The notes under the pieces were generated by a model. The model saw only the letters and a program-made list of their open reading frames with translations, was not told where the DNA came from and did not search any database. DNA of 37,324 nucleotides, from assembly GCA_964401875.1 (NCBI GenBank), contig CAYOAB010000002.1:1-37324 (forward strand), given 5' to 3'. Made by a program: the position numbers and the translations under genes. This stretch comes from Candidatus Micrarchaeota archaeon (lineage in GTDB: Archaea > Micrarchaeota > Micrarchaeia > CAILAH01). Below are positions 1,057 through 34,662 of the stretch, in pieces. Each line of letters opens with the position of its first letter. Positions within the stretch are counted from its first letter, which is position 1.

Positions 1057-1086
1057 TCAAACGTTTAATATCACAAATTGTCGTAA

Positions 1087-1300
1087 ATGGGTGAGCTTTC
1101 CGCCCTGTTTATTCGTTCACGAATAAACACGCCCTTCGGCTCTGCCGAAGTAACGCCTTCAAACCCCGGTAATGCTCAAACGACAAAGTCGTTTGGCATG
1201 CCTCTTTTCCGTAGGAAAAGGACACACCATCCACTACGTGGATACGTGTGCCGCAAACGCAAAGCGTTTGCCCGCATTTTGCCTCCGTGAGGCAAAATTG
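1087..1300. ncRNA. Unclassified GC-rich structured element with seven consecutive perfect stem-loops (candidate novel ncRNA or DNA-level hairpin array)
   Basis: Hairpins by hand folding are listed here.
- HP1 1106-1129: 10 bp, loop ttca.
- HP2 1134-1150: cttcggc/gccgaag, loop tct.
- HP3 1177-1195: caaacgac/gtcgtttg, loop aaa.
- HP4 1204-1220: cttttcc/ggaaaag, loop gta.
- HP5 1223-1250: cacac+atccac / gtggat+gtgtg, 1x2 internal loop, loop tac.
- HP6 1253-1271: gcaaacgc/gcgtttgc, loop aaa.
- HP7 1276-1298: attttgcctc/gaggcaaaat, loop cgt.
GC content is far above the flanks. I recognised no known RNA family motif. Confidence 0.5.
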
Positions 1301-1327
1301 AAAATAATAAAAACAATTTTGTAAAAT

Positions 1328-1334
1328 AAAAAAA
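1328..1334 (-). terminator. Oligo-T (T7) archaeal-type terminator just downstream of RNase P RNA
   Basis: The plus-strand A7 run at 1328-1334 is T7 on the minus strand. It begins 4 nt after the predicted RNase P RNA 3' end at 1338. Confidence 0.45.
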
Positions 1335-1337
1335 TAT

Positions 1338-1642
1338 AAGAAGGGTGATAGGCCACCTTTTGTTTAACTAGAAAAAATTTCTTTCCCCTAGGGCTTTCTT
1401 TAGGATGTGAACCGAAGGTTCAACCGAAAGAAAGGGCTAACAGCATTGATCTAAGCGCTTTAAGCTTGCACAATCATTACCTTGTACAGGGGCCGTTTCA
1501 TCCTTTTCATTTCCAACGTCATATAAAATCATTCTAAGAATGAAAGGTATCGTTTCTGTATCCCCATATTTCCTTAAGAAACACAAAGTTCATTGTGGGC
1601 GGACCTTCCTCCGGAGTACCCGGTGAGCTGTCTTCCCTTCTT
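1338..1642 (-). ncRNA. rnpB: RNase P RNA (archaeal type-A-like)
   Basis: The minus-strand RNA starts AAGAAGGGAAGACAGCUCACC...CCGGAGGAAGGUCCGCCC (CR-I, GGAGGAAaGUCC-like). It continues ...GGGGAUACAGAAACGAUACC (ACAGAAA motif) and ...GAUGAAACGGCCCCUGUACAAGG...UAGAUCAAUGCUG..., ending ...CACCCUUCUU. The terminal 8-bp P1 pairs AAGAAGGG (1642-1635) with CCCUUCUU (1345-1338). It is a GC-rich island of about 305 nt in AT-rich DNA. Confidence 0.85.
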
Positions 1643-1669
1643 ATGTATTAATTAAAGAATAGAGCCTTT

Positions 1670-2722
1670 TTATTTTTTACGATTTTTCAAAATTACTTGT
1701 TCAATTAAATCACAGGCATGAGTAACATTTTTTGAAGTGTCAATCTTAGAATAAATCTCTAAATTCTCCTTACACTTATTTGAATTAACCGTTTCTATGG
1801 CTAATTGTATGGTTTTTTCATCTAAAAATTCTGTGTCTAAACTTACACCTAACCCTTTTTCTGTAACACCTAAACAATTGTTAACCCTCTCTGTGTAATC
1901 TTTTAATGGAATTAAAATGAGTGCAGTTTTACAAGTAACACAACTCATAATAGAGGTGTGCCCACCATGAGTTATTATAAAAGGTGCCCTTGAAATTAAA
2001 TCATTAATTTCACTCTTTTCAATCATACCACTATTGTGAACCTTGTACCCATTTTTTTGTAAAACCTCTTTTATCTTATTCATTTCAGAATTCTGTAAAC
2101 CACTTCCACCCATTGTAATTAAAACTTCATTATTTTTCTTTTTAGGTTTGATTATATCAAGTGGACCAACAAAATGAAATTTATGTTCAGAACCAAAAAA
2201 TTCTAAATTTCTTCTAGTAATGGTGAAAGGAGGTTCATAATCGGGCACAATTAAAAGTGAACTTAAATCAACTATAGTTTTTGAAACAGCATCACTACCG
2301 AATTCAATTAATCCGTTAATCTGTTTGAAAACGTATGATAAACGGGTACAGTTAATTATACTTATAACGGGAACTCCTAACATTTTTGATATGAAAATTC
2401 CAGGTATATATCCATCTACAATTAAAACCTCAGGTTTATTTTTTGTTATTGCTGTTGTTATTTTTTTCAATGCGCTCGGTTTAATTCTTTTCATATTTTC
2501 AATTAAACTTTTGTTAACGTCAATTTCTTCTTCTTTAGTTATGAGTTCACCTATAGCAGGCAACTCGTGGACCATATACCCTTTTGAAATTAATATTTCA
2601 TAAGATTTACCGAAGGATGAAATTGATACTTCATGTTTTCTTCTAATTAGTTCTTCTATTAACGGTAAAGACCTATAAAGATGTCCCAACCCTAATCCGT
2701 TCACCATAAAGTGTATGCGCAT
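1670..2722 (-). CDS. Glycosyltransferase, GT-B fold (GT1/GT28, MurG/MJ1255-like)
   Basis: The ORF track extends to 2770, but the family-typical N-terminus MRIHFMVNGLGLGHLYR (G-x-G-x-GH loop) begins at the ATG at 2722. The C-terminal half has the ITHGGHTSIMSCVTCKTALILIP nucleotide-sugar binding pattern. Confidence 0.7.
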   Translation of the reverse strand: MRIHFMVNGLGLGHLYRSLPLIEELIRRKHEVSISSFGKSYEILISKGYMVHELPAIGELITKEEEIDVNKSLIENMKRIKPSALKKITTAITKNKPEVLIVDGYIPGIFISKMLGVPVISIINCTRLSYVFKQINGLIEFGSDAVSKTIVDLSSLLIVPDYEPPFTITRRNLEFFGSEHKFHFVGPLDIIKPKKKNNEVLITMGGSGLQNSEMNKIKEVLQKNGYKVHNSGMIEKSEINDLISRAPFIITHGGHTSIMSCVTCKTALILIPLKDYTERVNNCLGVTEKGLGVSLDTEFLDEKTIQLAIETVNSNKCKENLEIYSKIDTSKNVTHACDLIEQVILKNRKK

Positions 2723-2785
2723 AATGTAATTTAATCGTAAATTAATAAAAATAAATAAAAACTTATACATTCTAATTAAGCTTAA

Positions 2786-2965
2786 GCTGAGGTAGCCAAG
2801 TGGTTAAGGCGCTAGACTGCTAATCTAGTGGGCCCTGCCCGCGTGGGTTCAAGCACTGCGGATGAGGGGGAGACCCCCTCCTCCCCGTGTGTTCTGCCCC
2901 ACCACCCCGTGCGGTGGCGATAGAACATTAACTTTGTTAACTACCTAAAAATCCCATCCTCAGCG
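2786..2965 (+). tRNA. tRNA-Ser (anticodon GCT) with a long variable arm and a ~98-nt insertion in the T-loop
   Basis: Hand-folded cloverleaf, element by element.
- Acceptor gctgagg (2786-2792) pairs with cctcagc (2958-2964); discriminator is g2965.
- D-arm is gcc-aagtggttaa-ggc.
- Anticodon stem is ctaga/tctag with loop ctGCTaa (anticodon 2819-2821).
- Variable arm is gggc-cct-gccc.
- T-stem gtggg (2843-2847) pairs with cccat (2953-2957).
- T-loop ttcaa...at is split by 2853-2950.
No CCA is encoded, and a T5 run follows. Confidence 0.8.
2853..2950 (+). other. Candidate non-canonical tRNA intron in the T-loop (about position 58/59) of tRNA-Ser(GCU)
   Basis: The intron is inferred because the flanking exons complete a perfect T-stem and acceptor stem. 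The insert is GC-rich and self-structured, for example gaggggg-aga-ccccctc at 2864-2880. The boundaries are ambiguous by +/-2 nt because of flanking A residues. I could not confirm a bulge-helix-bulge motif by eye. Confidence 0.55.
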
Positions 2966-2966
2966 C

Positions 2967-2971
2967 TTTTT
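2967..2971 (+). terminator. Oligo-T tract after tRNA-Ser
   Basis: A ttttt run immediately follows the discriminator plus one nucleotide. Confidence 0.4.
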
Positions 2972-3000
2972 CTTATTATTAATATCAATTTAATGTTAAT

Positions 3001-3008
3001 TATAAAAT
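3001..3008 (+). promoter_or_regulatory. Candidate TATA box upstream of the free-standing structured RNA
   Basis: tataaaat at 3001-3008 lies about 20-25 nt upstream of the first base of the closing helix at 3022-3031. Confidence 0.35.
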
Positions 3009-3021
3009 GGTCAGAGGGTTA

Positions 3022-3137
3022 GCGCAGGGTTAAGGGACGCGAAGTCCCTTCCCGTCCTGCAGGGGCGGAACCTTCCAAAACGAAGTTTTGGAATGGTGCC
3101 ATATACTTTAGTATATGAGAACCCTGCTCCTCAGCGC
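3022..3137 (+). ncRNA. Unclassified ~115-nt GC-rich structured RNA, paralogue-like to the tRNA-Ser intron plus 3' exon tail
   Basis: - The closing helix pairs gcagggtt (3024-3031) with aaccctgc (3120-3127).
- Internal hairpins are aagggac-gcgaa-gtccctt (3032-3050), ttccaaaac-gaa-gttttggaa (3073-3093) and atatac-ttta-gtatat (3101-3116).
- The element ends in tcctcagcgc followed by T8, identical over 15 nt to the end of the tRNA-Ser gene.
I recognised no cloverleaf, 5S, SRP or C/D-box pattern. Confidence 0.5.
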
Positions 3138-3145
3138 TTTTTTTT
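3138..3145 (+). terminator. Oligo-T (T8) terminator after the structured RNA
   Basis: A tttttttt run lies at 3138-3145. Confidence 0.45.
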
Positions 3146-3150
3146 ATATA

Positions 3151-4494
3151 TTATTTTTTCTTCTGTAAATTGAGAATAGTTTCAACAACTACACTTAGTC
3201 CTGCACCCGTTGGCCCAAAACTAAATGGTGAATTCCCTTTTGTGTGCGCAGTTCCTGCAATGTCTAAATGTACCCATTTAGTTTTTCCAACAAAATTTGA
3301 AAGGAACGCAGCGGCCGTAATTGTTCCCGCTTCACCAGTTTCTGAACTATTCTTAATGTCTGCAAATTTACCTTTCATTAATTCAACATACTCTTCCGTT
3401 AAAGGTAATTGCCATACCTGGTCATAACTTTTCTTTGAACTTTCATTAATTAAGTCAATGAACTCCTTATCATTTCCAAGTATAGCAATGTGATAACTTC
3501 CAAGTGCAACTGTAACTGCACCAGTTAATGTAGCCAAATCAATAACATAATCAGGTTTATACTTTTCAATCCCATATGCTAAAGCGTCCGCTAAAATCAT
3601 TCTACCTTCCGCGTCCGTGTTTAATATTTCAATTGTTTTACCATTATATGCAGTAACAACATCTCCTGGCCTTGTAGCGTTACCACTTGGCATATTTTCA
3701 CATAAAGGCATAACACCAATCACATTAATCTCCGGTTCAATTTCTGCAATCGCTCTTATAATTCCCATTGTTGTAATAGCACCGCTCTTATCATATTTCA
3801 TTTCTTCCATTCCCTTTGAAGGTTTAAGTGAAATCCCACCACTATCAAAAGTAATTCCCTTTCCCACAATCAAGATTGTTTTTTTTGCTTTTTTGTGTGT
3901 ATATTTAATTATGGGCATTACAGGTTCATTGTAACTTCCCTTAGCAACGGACATGAACGCGTTCATCTCTAAATCATGAATCTGTTGAAAATCAATACAT
4001 TCATATTTCAAGTTCCATTCCTTTGCCATTTTTTTAACTTCTTCATTTATGTATGAAGGTGTAGCAATATTTCCCGGAAGTAAATTTATTTCTCTAACAT
4101 AATTAACAGAATCACCTAATATACTTGCCTTTGAAAGTTCTGGAAATTGTCTTTTATCTGCCCACAAATAAATTTTATTTTCATTTTTTTCTTCTTCCTT
4201 TTCACTCTTCAAATTTTTAATTTCATTTTCAGATAAAATCAAATAATAAAATATATATGATGCTATTCCATCATCAAATCCCTTAACATCTATAATTATA
4301 TCTTTTTTCAAATTCTTACCGAAACTTATTACATTTTGAAGTATTTTTTTAATTGAATTATTTGTAACCTTTTCTTTTCCCAGGTTACAGGTTATAATAT
4401 CTTCTTTGTAACTTATTTCTCCCACTTTCTCTTTCTTATTAAATTCAATTTTAATAGCGTTTTTAATTTCCTTTTCAGTTATTTCAATTTGCAT
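3151..4494 (-). CDS. pepA: Leucyl aminopeptidase, M17 family
   Basis: 447 aa. It carries the M17 signature NTDAEGRMILADAL, VGKGITFDSGGISLKP and DLATLTGA. Confidence 0.9.
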   Translation of the reverse strand: MQIEITEKEIKNAIKIEFNKKEKVGEISYKEDIITCNLGKEKVTNNSIKKILQNVISFGKNLKKDIIIDVKGFDDGIASYIFYYLILSENEIKNLKSEKEEEKNENKIYLWADKRQFPELSKASILGDSVNYVREINLLPGNIATPSYINEEVKKMAKEWNLKYECIDFQQIHDLEMNAFMSVAKGSYNEPVMPIIKYTHKKAKKTILIVGKGITFDSGGISLKPSKGMEEMKYDKSGAITTMGIIRAIAEIEPEINVIGVMPLCENMPSGNATRPGDVVTAYNGKTIEILNTDAEGRMILADALAYGIEKYKPDYVIDLATLTGAVTVALGSYHIAILGNDKEFIDLINESSKKSYDQVWQLPLTEEYVELMKGKFADIKNSSETGEAGTITAAAFLSNFVGKTKWVHLDIAGTAHTKGNSPFSFGPTGAGLSVVVETILNLQKKK

Positions 4495-16537: not shown

Positions 16538-17563
16538 ATGGAAGAGATAGATAAAGATAACAACACTGATAATGATATTAAAGATGAAGACATTTACATT
16601 CCTTGGACTGAGAAGTATAGGCCAAAAAAAGTTGATGAAATAGTTGGACATAAAGGTATAGTTGAAAGGTTAAAGGCCTACGTTAAAGAAAAGAATATGC
16701 CCAACTTACTCTTCTCCGGGCCAGCAGGTATAGGTAAAACCACTTCCGCAATAGCTTTAGCCCATGAACTTTACGAGGAAGACATTAAACAATCCTTTTT
16801 AGAATTGAACGCAAGTGATGAGAGAGGTATAAACATAGTAAGAGGTAAAATCAAAGATTTCGCCCGTACCGTGCCAATAGCAAATGTTCCTTTCAAAATA
16901 ATATTTTTAGATGAAGCCGATGCTTTGACTCAAGATGCACAAAGTGCATTGAGGAGAACAATGGAAATGTATTCAAAAATAACAAGGTTTATCCTCTCAT
17001 GTAACTATTCCTCTAAAATAATCTCACCAATTCAAAGTAGGTGTGCTATATTCAGGTTTACAAGTTTAAACAAGGAAGACATTGAAACTCAATTAGAACT
17101 AATCTCTAAAAAAGAAAAAATAACAATTTCAAAAGATGTAATTGATGCTGTTTATGAAGTGGGTGAAGGCGATTTAAGAAAATCAATTAACCTTTTACAA
17201 AGTGCAACTTTAACTTCAAAGAAGATAACAGAAAAACAAATTTACACTTTAGCTTCAAGAGCTAAACCCACTGAGGTTGCAGAAATAATAGATAATGCAT
17301 ATAAGGGCAACTTCTCAGATGCACGTAAAAAGCTTGAACATGTAATTGTTCACTATGGTATGAGCGGACAAGATATAATTGATCAAATGTATAGTGAAGT
17401 TATAAAGATGAGTTTACCTGACGCAGTTAAAGTCCGTTTGGTTGATAAGATAGGTGAATATAATTTCCGTTTAAGTGAAGGTGCAGATGAAAGAATTCAA
17501 ATTAATGCACTTCTCGCGCACATAACGCTTGAAGGTAAAAATAATGGTGATATGAATGTATAA
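16538..17563 (+). CDS. rfcS: Replication factor C small subunit
   Basis: 341 aa with WTEKYRPKKVDEIVGH, GPAGIGKTT, IIFLDEADALT, the SRC motif QSRCAIFRF and GDLRKSIN. Confidence 0.9.
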   Translation: MEEIDKDNNTDNDIKDEDIYIPWTEKYRPKKVDEIVGHKGIVERLKAYVKEKNMPNLLFSGPAGIGKTTSAIALAHELYEEDIKQSFLELNASDERGINIVRGKIKDFARTVPIANVPFKIIFLDEADALTQDAQSALRRTMEMYSKITRFILSCNYSSKIISPIQSRCAIFRFTSLNKEDIETQLELISKKEKITISKDVIDAVYEVGEGDLRKSINLLQSATLTSKKITEKQIYTLASRAKPTEVAEIIDNAYKGNFSDARKKLEHVIVHYGMSGQDIIDQMYSEVIKMSLPDAVKVRLVDKIGEYNFRLSEGADERIQINALLAHITLEGKNNGDMNV

Positions 17564-19979: not shown

Positions 19980-21748
19980 CTTATCACTTTTTGTTTAGTT
20001 ATTCTTAATATGTGAAGTAAAAGTTGTATTTCATCCTCTTTTAATTGTGACGAATACTTCTCTAAATACATTTCACCTTCCCTCTTATGCACATATGTGT
20101 AAAGAGTAATTCCAGCAACAATATCTCTCCCAAATGTTGGGCCATCTACTGATATTGCTGCTTCATTACCTGCTACTGCTTCATCTTTACTTGTCTTATC
20201 AACTTGTATACCCTTTATTTTACCTATAATTTCTCCTCTCTCATTTATCAAATCTGTTCCCTTTTTTATTCTCCCCACTTCAACCTTAACACCAAAAATT
20301 GCTGGTTTATTTATTCTGAAACAGCAGTTAGGTATAATTTTAATTCTTCCAATGGGTTGTAATTTCTCAAATACATTTTTCTTTTCCTCTTGTAACATTT
20401 CCTCTTTCCATTTTGTATATTTTTCAATAAGCAAATAAATTACATTATCATTGAATATTGGTATTTTATTTTCTTTAGCAAATTGTTCAACGTCTTTTTG
20501 AACTTTAACATTAAACGCTAAAATAACTGCGTTAAGTGGATTACTTTCCCTAACAGCACAGGTTTCAACTACATCCTTTTTTGTAACGTTACCTATGTTA
20601 ACTCTTCCCACTCTAATCCCTTCATTTTGAAGTAACCTAATACTGGCTTCAAGTGAACCCAAGGTATCTGCCCTAACAGTTAATCCATCTCCTCCCGAAG
20701 TGAATTTAAGTATAGAATTCATTTCATTCTTAAGTGAATTTATCTCCTCATCATTTTCATTTTCAATTGTTATCAATTCACTTCCTGGTAATGCTCCTTC
20801 CAGGTTAGGTGCAACTATCTTAACACCACTTGCGGCTCTTACACTTTGAATGTTAGCGAATTTATCTTTAGGATCACGCATTTCATCTAACGGTTTAGGT
20901 TTAAGTAATGCTCTAATTGTAGTAATGTTAACTCCGTCAAGTGTAGCGAAAGCTATTTTATCCCCCACATTCAATTTACCATTATACAAAATACAATCTA
21001 ATGTGGTTCCCAACCCTTGCACCTCTTTAACTTCAAGAATACTTGACTTACCTCTAGATTCTTGATCAGTTTTCAAATTATTTTCTAAATATTTCTGTGC
21101 TAAAGCAGATATCATAATTAATATTTCAATTAACCCTTCACTTGTATGTGCACTAACAGGTATAATTCCAATTTCTTTCGTGAAATCTAACACTCTATCA
21201 TATCTATCTGAGTTGAAACCCAATTCACCTAACTTTCCTACTAAATTATAGATTTTATTATCTAAATCCTCTTGAACTTGTGGTGTTTGTTGTGAAATTG
21301 ATTCCATTATAGATTTTGTATTTTTCTTTTTCCAACCATAAACTAAATCGACCTTATTCATGGCAACTATGAAAGGTGTTTTATATTCTTTTAATATGTT
21401 AATAGCTTCAATTGTTTGAGGTTGAAAACCTTGCGTTGCATCAACAACTAAAATAGCAATATCTGCAATACTTCCCCCTCTCTTACGCAAATTAGTAAAC
21501 GCTTCATGTCCGGGTGTATCTATAAACAATAAACCTGGTATTTTAAGGTTAAATTTCATTTTTTCAAGTAATGATTTACCAATGCTATTGATTATATCTA
21601 TGGGCACTTCACTTGCACCTATGTGCTGGGTTATCGCTCCCTTTTCCCTCTTCTGAACACTTGTATTTCTAATACTATCTAATAATGAAGTTTTACCGTG
21701 ATCAACATGGCCCATTACGACTACAATGGGTTGTCTAACTATTTCCAT
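19976..21748 (-). CDS. infB: Translation initiation factor aIF5B (IF-2 homologue)
   Basis: 590 aa with G1 GHVDHGKTSLLD, G3 DTPGHEAF and G4 NKVD. Length and domain order are typical of archaeal aIF5B. Confidence 0.9.
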   Translation of the reverse strand: MEIVRQPIVVVMGHVDHGKTSLLDSIRNTSVQKREKGAITQHIGASEVPIDIINSIGKSLLEKMKFNLKIPGLLFIDTPGHEAFTNLRKRGGSIADIAILVVDATQGFQPQTIEAINILKEYKTPFIVAMNKVDLVYGWKKKNTKSIMESISQQTPQVQEDLDNKIYNLVGKLGELGFNSDRYDRVLDFTKEIGIIPVSAHTSEGLIEILIMISALAQKYLENNLKTDQESRGKSSILEVKEVQGLGTTLDCILYNGKLNVGDKIAFATLDGVNITTIRALLKPKPLDEMRDPKDKFANIQSVRAASGVKIVAPNLEGALPGSELITIENENDEEINSLKNEMNSILKFTSGGDGLTVRADTLGSLEASIRLLQNEGIRVGRVNIGNVTKKDVVETCAVRESNPLNAVILAFNVKVQKDVEQFAKENKIPIFNDNVIYLLIEKYTKWKEEMLQEEKKNVFEKLQPIGRIKIIPNCCFRINKPAIFGVKVEVGRIKKGTDLINERGEIIGKIKGIQVDKTSKDEAVAGNEAAISVDGPTFGRDIVAGITLYTYVHKREGEMYLEKYSSQLKEDEIQLLLHILRITKQKVIR

Positions 21749-34545: not shown

Positions 34546-34567
34546 CATTTTGATTAATAAGAGGATA

Positions 34568-34639
34568 TGGACTTGCCGGGGATCGAACCCGGAGTCTCTA
34601 CCTTGCGAAGGTAGCGTCATACCATTAGACCACAAGCCC
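34568..34639 (-). tRNA. tRNA-Ala (anticodon CGC)
   Basis: The reverse complement is GGGCTTG-TG-GTCTAATGGTATGAC-G-CTACC-TTCGCAA-GGTAG-AGACT-CCGGG-TTCGATC-CCCGG-CAAGTCC-A. The cloverleaf is perfect with a G3:U70 alanine identity pair. There is no intron and no encoded CCA. Confidence 0.9.
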
Positions 34640-34662
34640 ACTATTATGTTAAAGTGAACTAA

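Follow-up and report, generated by a model that had tools for sequence, protein, structure and literature searches.

Why should a tRNA gene be followed, a short distance downstream, by a second copy of its own 3′ end? The question is raised by a stretch of 37,324 nucleotides (nt) from Candidatus Micrarchaeota archaeon (contig CAYOAB010000002.1 of assembly GCA_964401875.1), called here the window. In it the gene for tRNA-Ser(GCU) (2786-2965, + strand) is followed on the same strand by a GC-rich hairpin cassette, E1 (3007-3127), and then by a repeat of the end of the tRNA gene. The first copy of the repeat, R1 (2957-2971, + strand), comprises the last T-stem base, the acceptor 3′ strand, the discriminator, a C and a run of five T's (T5). 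An AT-rich spacer, CTTATTATTAATATCAATTTAATGTTAATTATAAA (2972-3006, + strand), lies between R1 and E1, and the second copy, R2 (TCCTCAGCGC plus a run of eight T's, T8; 3128-3145, + strand), ends the element. The segment 3007-3145 is probably the product of a duplication or insertion at the DNA level at the 3′ end of tRNA-Ser(GCU), E1 and R2 together being a decaying copy of the intron and the 3′ exon. E1 itself most likely belongs to a family of hairpin cassettes that, in this ultrasmall archaeon and related ones, occur just after or inside the genes for tRNA-Ser and RNase P RNA.

The repeat is exact: TCCTCAGCGCTTTTT occupies 2957-2971 and, without a change, 3128-3142, as a sequence-only reading of the window had pointed out. 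Of the 15-mers repeated in the window, all the others (16, with 0-27% GC) are AT-rich, and the similarity between R1 and R2 reaches 24 of 26 positions when one gap is allowed. Back-of-envelope arithmetic at the local GC gives an expectation of ~2e-4 for the recurrence of the 10-nt non-T part within ~130 nt. The same reading had described a GC-rich structured element after tRNA-Ser, and this too holds. The fold of 3010-3140 reaches -60 kcal/mol, against -38.7 ± 3.6 in dinucleotide shuffles (z = -5.9), and consists of a perfect closing stem of 8 bp, GCAGGGUU (3024-3031) with AACCCUGC (3120-3127), and four hairpins (3032-3050, 3052-3068, 3070-3097 and 3100-3117). E1 opens with the motif ATGGTCAGAGG (3007-3017), and the T8 run that had been noted at the end of the element is present at 3138-3145. 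The TATA-like box proposed ahead of the element was not confirmed, the upstream stretch being merely AT-rich. No Rfam family, the tRNA model included, matches 3007-3145 at the gathering score or even at E <= 10. The whole region is identical in four metagenome assemblies of the species of the window.

Among the explanations first proposed was that an intron and its 3′ exon had been duplicated or mobilised to give the element. The proposal was essentially right, but the evidence for it comes from relatives and not from likeness to the neighbouring intron. The relatives are metagenomic Micrarchaeota-like contigs that carry homologues of the flanking M17 peptidase or glycosyltransferase (GT); 102 loci, almost all of them this locus, were fetched, and are denoted by L-numbers. 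Their M17 proteins are 70-96% identical to that of the window (70-88% in a more distant set). In these relatives, as in the window, GC-rich hairpin cassettes come straight after the tRNA-Ser or the RNase P RNA gene, and five of about seven such 3′-flank cassettes are followed by a direct copy, 15-30 nt long, of the 3′ end of the upstream gene. Downstream of tRNA-Ser, the copy is 15 nt long in the window and also in L100, where ATCCCATCCTCAGCG is present twice and starts in the T-loop. Downstream of RNase P RNA, it measures 19 nt in L007 (GGCCTATTACCCTTCTTAT), after a cassette whose start is exactly the first 11 nt of E1; 20 nt in L004, after a cassette of the intron-core type and in addition to an older, degenerate copy of 41 nt (76% identity); and 30 nt, terminator included, in L100. 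The repeat matches the species' own sequence variant of the gene end.

The pattern of repeat, cassette and repeat recurs at two target genes, at one of which a filled and an empty site can be compared, and it is polymorphic between strains. The filled and empty sites are those of L100 and L096, which are identical in the flanks and whose sole difference is an 84-nt cassette with a perfect 30-bp copy of the repeat. Two strains of the window's own species differ from it in this way. L093, with an M17 protein 96% identical to that of the window, repeats part of the spacer between R2 and the M17 stop codon. L088 repeats more of the spacer after R2, in a copy that lacks 6 nt, and its contig ends there. 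Contigs of four assemblies (L088, L093, L099 and L102) break inside the region. The spacer CTTATTATTAATATCAATTTAATGTTAATTATAAA is conserved downstream of tRNA-Ser in L091, and the cassette is absent from L094 and from the tRNA side of L007.

The tRNA gene next to the element is real and carries an intron, as had been claimed. Its 5′ exon (2786-2853) and 3′ exon (2952-2965) are separated by an intron of ~98 nt (~2854-2951), and the C and T5 run (2966-2971) follow the 3′ exon directly. The bulge-helix-bulge (BHB) is the splice motif of archaea, and a simple scan for its geometry places the intron in the T-loop, at position 59/60. The 5-bp T-stem serves as the outer helix of the motif, and UUCA paired with UGRA or UAAA as the central helix (UUCA/UAAA in the window, with three of four pairs). 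The splice position is common to all five complete genes (window, L091, L089, L007 and L094), each from a different species. In L100 the tRNA-Ser is intron-less and is called intact by ARAGORN, its end being the first copy of the repeat. Since R1 in the window likewise completes the tRNA, with T5 next, the cassette does not interrupt the mature RNA. ARAGORN misses the window gene entirely, and the Rfam tRNA model (33 bits) aligns only its 5′ part, by way of a forced, false acceptor stem; the complete gene was read from the sequence. Genes with 59/60 introns of this kind will be under-annotated in genomes of DPANN archaea. A C/D-box small RNA within the intron was considered and rejected, the Rfam match being at chance level (10 bits) and the GAUGA motif not being kept in L094. 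Consensus folding of four introns, too few and too poorly aligned, made no covariation visible.

The intron varies among strains whose GT proteins are 99-100% identical. The tRNA-Ser gene is either intron-less or holds one of at least five types of intron, namely one GC-rich core type, two variants of a J-type and two AT-rich types that are unrelated to each other. The window has the GC-rich core type, L102 (1-90, - strand) a different type inserted after GGGTTC, and L101 (1-60, - strand) and L096 (1-120, - strand) a third; L007 and L089 have AT-rich types, and the gene without an intron is at L100:289-370 (- strand). The swapping or loss of introns among strains so close in their GT proteins implies either very fast intron turnover or recombination within populations.

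The cassettes are not confined to the DNA 3′ of the two genes. Related sequences also occur as the 59/60 intron of tRNA-Ser and as an insertion in RNase P RNA. The window gene for RNase P RNA (1336-1645, - strand; Rfam RF00373, 76.4 bits, E = 5e-21) was missed by the default Rfam scan because its 76 bits fall below the gathering score of 84 bits. It contains a hairpin cassette of ~76 nt between the 3′ strand of P2 and the 3′ strand of P4. Close relatives have different types of this internal cassette, which shares homology with the tRNA-Ser introns found in other strains; a splice motif around it was sought across four species, with no consistent position found. Local alignments, scored against dinucleotide shuffles in ~20 pairwise comparisons in all, connect the three contexts. 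The tRNA-Ser intron of L096 and L101 matches a free-standing piece after an RNase P copy in L004 (z = 11.5), and that piece matches the cassette inside the window RNase P RNA (z = 5.5). The L007 tRNA-Ser intron matches the cassette inside the L091 RNase P RNA (z = 3.9; 4/1000 shuffles). The reverse complement of the L004 cassette beside M17 matches the GC-rich type of intron present in the window and in L091 (z ~10), and the L091 and L007 cassettes match each other (z = 9.9). In this lineage the cassettes probably have a rapid turnover at three kinds of place, namely the 59/60 intron site of tRNA-Ser, the internal site of RNase P RNA and the DNA 3′ of both genes. A 71-nt cassette is 96% identical between L007 (1930-2000, - strand) and L091 (1465-1540, - strand), the flanks being ~74% identical. 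In L091 the cassette lies within RNase P RNA, whereas in L007 it is free-standing, downstream of that gene.

A second cassette in the window, E2 (1085-1300, - strand), lies directly 3′ of RNase P RNA and is GC-rich with multiple hairpins. It is a mosaic of modules from the cassettes of relatives (ACCGGGGTTTGAAGG, GGCAAACGCTTTGCGTTTGC and the end GGCGGAAAGCTCACCCATT), and it is similar to the tRNA-side cassette of L100 (z = 5.2); no clear copy of the RNase P 3′ end was found in it. When an nhmmer profile built from the cassettes of L100, L007 and L091 only was run against both strands of the window, its top two matches were E2 (E = 0.017) and E1 (3007-3054; E = 0.024). E1 is most similar to the L004 cassette at the same position beside M17 (z = 4.7; 1/1000 shuffles). 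Together with the shared ATGGTCAGAGG start, these sequence comparisons speak for the membership of E1 in the cassette family.

What, then, is the relation of E1 to the introns? The sequence-only reading held that the element mirrors the window's own tRNA-Ser intron, and here it was not upheld. Outside the tail, the global alignment gives z = 1.3-1.4 (44-58 of 500 shuffles are as good) and the local alignment z = -0.02. A profile of the variable arm, T-arm and intron built from orthologues recovers the tRNA gene (E = 2e-21) and not E1. Direct homology to the window intron was rejected on these grounds. An inverted copy was rejected as well (z = -1.1), although the test is ambiguous because the hairpins are quasi-palindromic. 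The tRNA-Ser intron of L091, on the other hand, aligns collinearly with E1 (z = 4.0; 1/1000 shuffles), and the alignment pairs TGGTGCCATATACTTT with TGGTGCATTTACTTT near the 3′ end of the intron. With the likeness to the window intron not significant, the view of E1 and R2 as a paralogue of the 3′ third of the gene rests on this bridging orthologue, on a pseudo T-stem and on a splice-like 3′ end.

The last two features lie at the junction with R2. The last 12 nt of E1 read UGAGAA/CCCUGC, as compared with UGGAAA/UCCCAU and UGAAAA/UCCCAC at the 3′ ends of real introns. With the true 5′ splice site of tRNA-Ser they form all four central pairs and a 5-bp outer helix that includes two G-U pairs, a fit matched by 114 of 50,000 shuffles of E1. 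The earlier statement that ctgct/cctgc cannot pair with gtggg is wrong in this respect, for CCUGC and GUGGG form three Watson-Crick and two G-U pairs in the register of the splice motif. E1 also carries its own partner of CCCUGC, the sequence GCAGGG followed by UUAA, so that its closing stem reads as a pseudo T-arm. The GCAGGG/CCCUGC stem has 6-8 bp, the loop starts with UUAA and lacks C56, and an extra U precedes CCUCAGC. Splicing to E1 would leave a surplus nucleotide where the T-stem joins the acceptor stem. Since the product of such splicing would exceed the proper length by one nucleotide, and in view of the missing C56, E1 and R2 do not make a working part of a tRNA. What they look like is a diverged and decaying paralogue of the intron-bearing 3′ third of tRNA-Ser.

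We favour an origin by local DNA events. Read in order, the element would comprise a closing stem that corresponds to a pseudo T-stem, an interior of intron-like hairpins, and 12 nt that would stand for an intron 3′ end joined to the 3′ strand of the T-stem; the acceptor 3′ strand, the discriminator and a T-run come after the pseudo T-stem strand. The repeats may have arisen from partial tandem duplication, or from template switching during replication, at a hairpin cluster in AT-rich DNA. Unequal recombination between repeat copies could then yield extra units, as in L088, or precise loss of a cassette, as in L096. The E1/R2 copy would not take part in the production of tRNA-Ser. There is no sign that the tRNA requires E1, its gene being complete and followed by a T5 run. 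Local events are favoured because the RNase P 3′ end is present in L004 as serial, progressively degenerate partial copies, because the spacer has been duplicated along with the repeat in the window's species, because neither a mobile-element gene nor a dispersed copy was seen, and because the native terminator in L007 follows the first copy of the repeat, not the second.

Several observations weigh against this account. A simple tandem duplication predicts two cassettes, so that an extra deletion, or another mechanism, is needed to arrive at one cassette between two repeats. L096 may represent a precise secondary loss and not a site that was never filled. The L091 cassette has no recognisable repeat after it. 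The likeness of E1 to the window's own T-arm, as to its intron, is not significant, and since ~20 comparisons were made, the results of 1/1000 are only moderately strong. E1 has 55-68% GC and a perfect 8-bp closing stem in a genome of 30% GC, and the introns of some relatives are AT-rich. Its high GC and intact stem, unlike those introns, hint at selection on RNA rather than pure decay. Finally, no copies of the cassettes were found beyond this locus, either in the window or in the 102 loci, which sample almost only this locus.

Could the cassettes have been inserted instead? E-type cassettes would then be small, non-autonomous mobile elements, placed beside the 3′ ends of stable RNA genes by an enzyme encoded elsewhere, and the tail would be an attachment repeat or a target duplication. 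The enzyme could be an integrase with an attachment site over the gene 3′ end, of the SSV or pNOB8 type, or a Cas1/casposase-like protein making long staggered cuts. We regard this as an unlikely explanation, though a serious rival. The clean filled and empty sites with a perfect 30-bp direct repeat speak in its favour, as does the occurrence of the 5′ motif ATGGTCAKRGG at two targets, tRNA-Ser (window) and RNase P (L007 and L100). The three repeats of the RNase P end share their first base and start with GGCC. The tRNA repeat of L100 begins in the T-loop, where the attachment sites of tRNA-targeting integrases often start. It is established that tRNA ends can be directly repeated at the borders of integrated elements (PMC3293823), and partial tRNA fragments at rearranged tRNA loci have been reported (PMC3218864).

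Set against such insertion is the size of the insert, which is only 84-156 nt (156 nt in the window) and has no open reading frame (ORF). The window ORFs of at least 110 amino acids (aa) yielded no domain of an integrase, a transposase or a reverse transcriptase, and a search of viral contigs and plasmids with the cassette gave zero matches. That no copy was seen elsewhere in the window or in the 102 loci, almost all of them this locus, counts against mobility as well. The length of the repeat is not fixed (15, 19-20, 30 or more than 40 nt), terminal inverted repeats are weak (gapped similarity of the ends, judged by eye), and the position of the L007 terminator does not fit a staggered cut.

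A bolder form of the insertion hypothesis can be put forward tentatively, and it too is on the unlikely side. The cassettes would be undescribed small mobile elements of Micrarchaeota, structured as RNA, that shuttle among the tRNA-Ser intron site, a site within RNase P RNA and the DNA 3′ of either gene, with the 3′ end of the target duplicated on insertion. The repeat-cassette-repeat arrangement would be an intermediate in the gain or loss of 3′-proximal introns, and the insertion in RNase P RNA may be intron-derived. On this hypothesis the L100 repeat, starting in the T-loop beside the 59/60 site, would be a snapshot of such an intermediate.

Less probable still is that E1 is an independently transcribed structured RNA of ~115-130 nt whose tail has a role. 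The tail might, for example, compete for the 5′ acceptor strand of the tRNA, or the element might act as a processing or terminator module of read-through transcripts. The very stable fold, the T8 terminator and the identity of the region in four metagenome assemblies would suit a small RNA, and the spacer conserved between the window and L091 could hold a putative promoter. The high GC in a genome of 30% GC, the RNA-type loops and the perfect closing stem leave some slight room for a role at the RNA level. The extent of the tail is polymorphic between strains, however, the L091 homologue has no tail, and the content of the cassettes is a mosaic that differs among close relatives. Clean loss from L096 and absence from L094 and the tRNA side of L007 also argue against a conserved RNA, as does the lack of a match in Rfam. 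Consensus folding of four cassettes, again too few and too poorly aligned, gave no convincing covariation.

Very improbable is the earlier suggestion of a split or trans-spliced tRNA, in which E1 and R2 would be a 3′ piece or an alternative 3′ exon joined by splicing endonuclease and ligase to a 5′ piece encoded elsewhere, or to the tRNA-Ser 5′ exon in read-through transcripts: the BHB geometry between the 3′ end of E1 and the genuine 5′ splice site of tRNA-Ser, and the reportedly broad specificity of the Micrarchaeota splicing endonuclease, would allow it, but a complete tRNA-Ser with a T5 terminator lies upstream, 44 nt away, the stem of the pseudo T-arm is one pair too long and its loop lacks C56, the product would have an extra nucleotide and two G-U pairs in its T-stem, a search for a complementary leader found no match of at least 12 nt in the window, and the equivalent cassette of L100 has no splice motif at 59/60.

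How does the locus, seen as a DNA-level duplication, compare with known systems? It is best described as of a known kind, that of tRNA-gene fragments and duplications at rearrangement hot spots, with intron turnover. What is unusual is the tiny, gene-less nature of the cassettes, the involvement of RNase P RNA and the availability of strain-level snapshots. Partial copies of tRNA genes at tRNA loci of archaea are known from integration and recombination, as in the 44-bp repeat of the tRNA-Arg 3′ end of SSV1, in elements of the pNOB8 type and at the tRNA-Thr locus of Caldiarchaeum, where the population is heterogeneous and intron gain has occurred (Sugahara et al., 2012; PMC3293823). The present locus shares with integration-derived repeats an intact, reconstituted tRNA gene with a direct repeat of its terminal part nearby, and with those loci generally the heterogeneity in a natural population and the link to gain or replacement of a tRNA intron. 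As at the attachment sites of integrated elements, the cassette DNA is bordered by a directly repeated 3′ portion of an RNA gene. It differs in that only 84-156 nt of hairpins, with no recombinase gene, lie between the repeats; the repeat, of 15-30 nt, occurs also at RNase P RNA, and neither an element nor an attachment site on one was found.

Integration by enzymes of the Cas1 family, as in casposons and CRISPR spacer acquisition, generates target duplications of ~14-30 bp, and some casposons favour tRNA 3′ ends. The unusually long target duplication is the point of likeness. In contrast, no Cas1 or casposase gene was seen here, there are no clear terminal inverted repeats, the length of the repeat varies and the insert is tiny. 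Transposition of archaeal tRNA introns between tRNA genes has reportedly been described in Thermoproteales, in work attributed to Fujishima et al. (Mol Biol Evol, 2010). The short BHB introns at non-canonical positions, the related sequences in different genes and the late gain or turnover are alike in the two cases. Unlike in Thermoproteales, the cassettes here also lie outside genes and in RNase P RNA and come with duplicated 3′ exon sequence, and the turnover is visible between strains with neighbouring proteins that are 99-100% identical. Split tRNA genes are known from Nanoarchaeum equitans and Caldivirga maquilingensis, and recently split tRNAs from Desulfurococcales (PMC3218864). E1 resembles these as a free-standing GC-rich piece that ends in an acceptor 3′ strand and belongs to a DPANN-type archaeon whose introns are non-canonical; it departs from them in that its tRNA is intact next door, and in the want of a valid T-loop and of a complementary partner in the window.

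The gain, exchange and loss of protein-spliced introns by archaeal tRNA genes, and the way such genes become split, are still debated, mostly on the basis of distant species. This locus shows related strains in different states, with different intron types or none, with or without a cassette, and with the 3′ exon and spacer present once or more than once. Should intron turnover proceed through the arrangement of cassette plus repeat, it could be tested directly by means of long-read metagenomes, RNA-seq and the splicing endonuclease of Micrarchaeota. If it is only the scar of a duplication, GC-rich islands in AT-rich genomes can be fragments of genes, a warning for annotators, and the locus still marks a rearrangement hot spot that breaks assemblies.

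The block formed by RNase P RNA, GT and tRNA-Ser is inverted between two types of relatives. L089, L099 and L102 have the orientation of the window, and L004, L007, L091, L094, L096 and L100 the other. The ACT-domain gene and the M17 gene that flank the block (1085-3145 in the window) stay in place despite the inversion. A history with a single inversion linking the window, L091 and L007 was rejected, as every version tried predicts the wrong repeat beside the cassette.

The M17 peptidase gene (3151-4494, - strand) is convergent with tRNA-Ser, and its stop codon lies 5 nt past the T8 run. Its nearest named relatives, from Candidatus Micrarchaeia, are ~50% identical, and the exact protein is found only on metagenome contigs, which points to an uncultured archaeon of the DPANN/Micrarchaeota type; querying a genome collection with it returned relatives at no more than 49% identity. 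In L096 (1616-2879) the peptidase is split over two predicted ORFs, of 205 and 207 aa, possibly through a frameshift or a sequencing error. At the junction between RNase P RNA and M17 that holds cassettes elsewhere, three loci have an ORF of 387 aa (L094:4578-5741, L090:1032-2195 and L095:2744-3907), for which no Pfam or PHROG match was found with the L090 and L094 versions. The other neighbouring genes in the window are ordinary housekeeping genes, and no cassette-like element follows its tRNA-Ala gene (34567-34640, - strand). In the window, with ~30% GC overall, GC-rich islands occur at a few places only, among them two short and marginal stretches of 54% GC, at 16699-16763 and 21601-21651.

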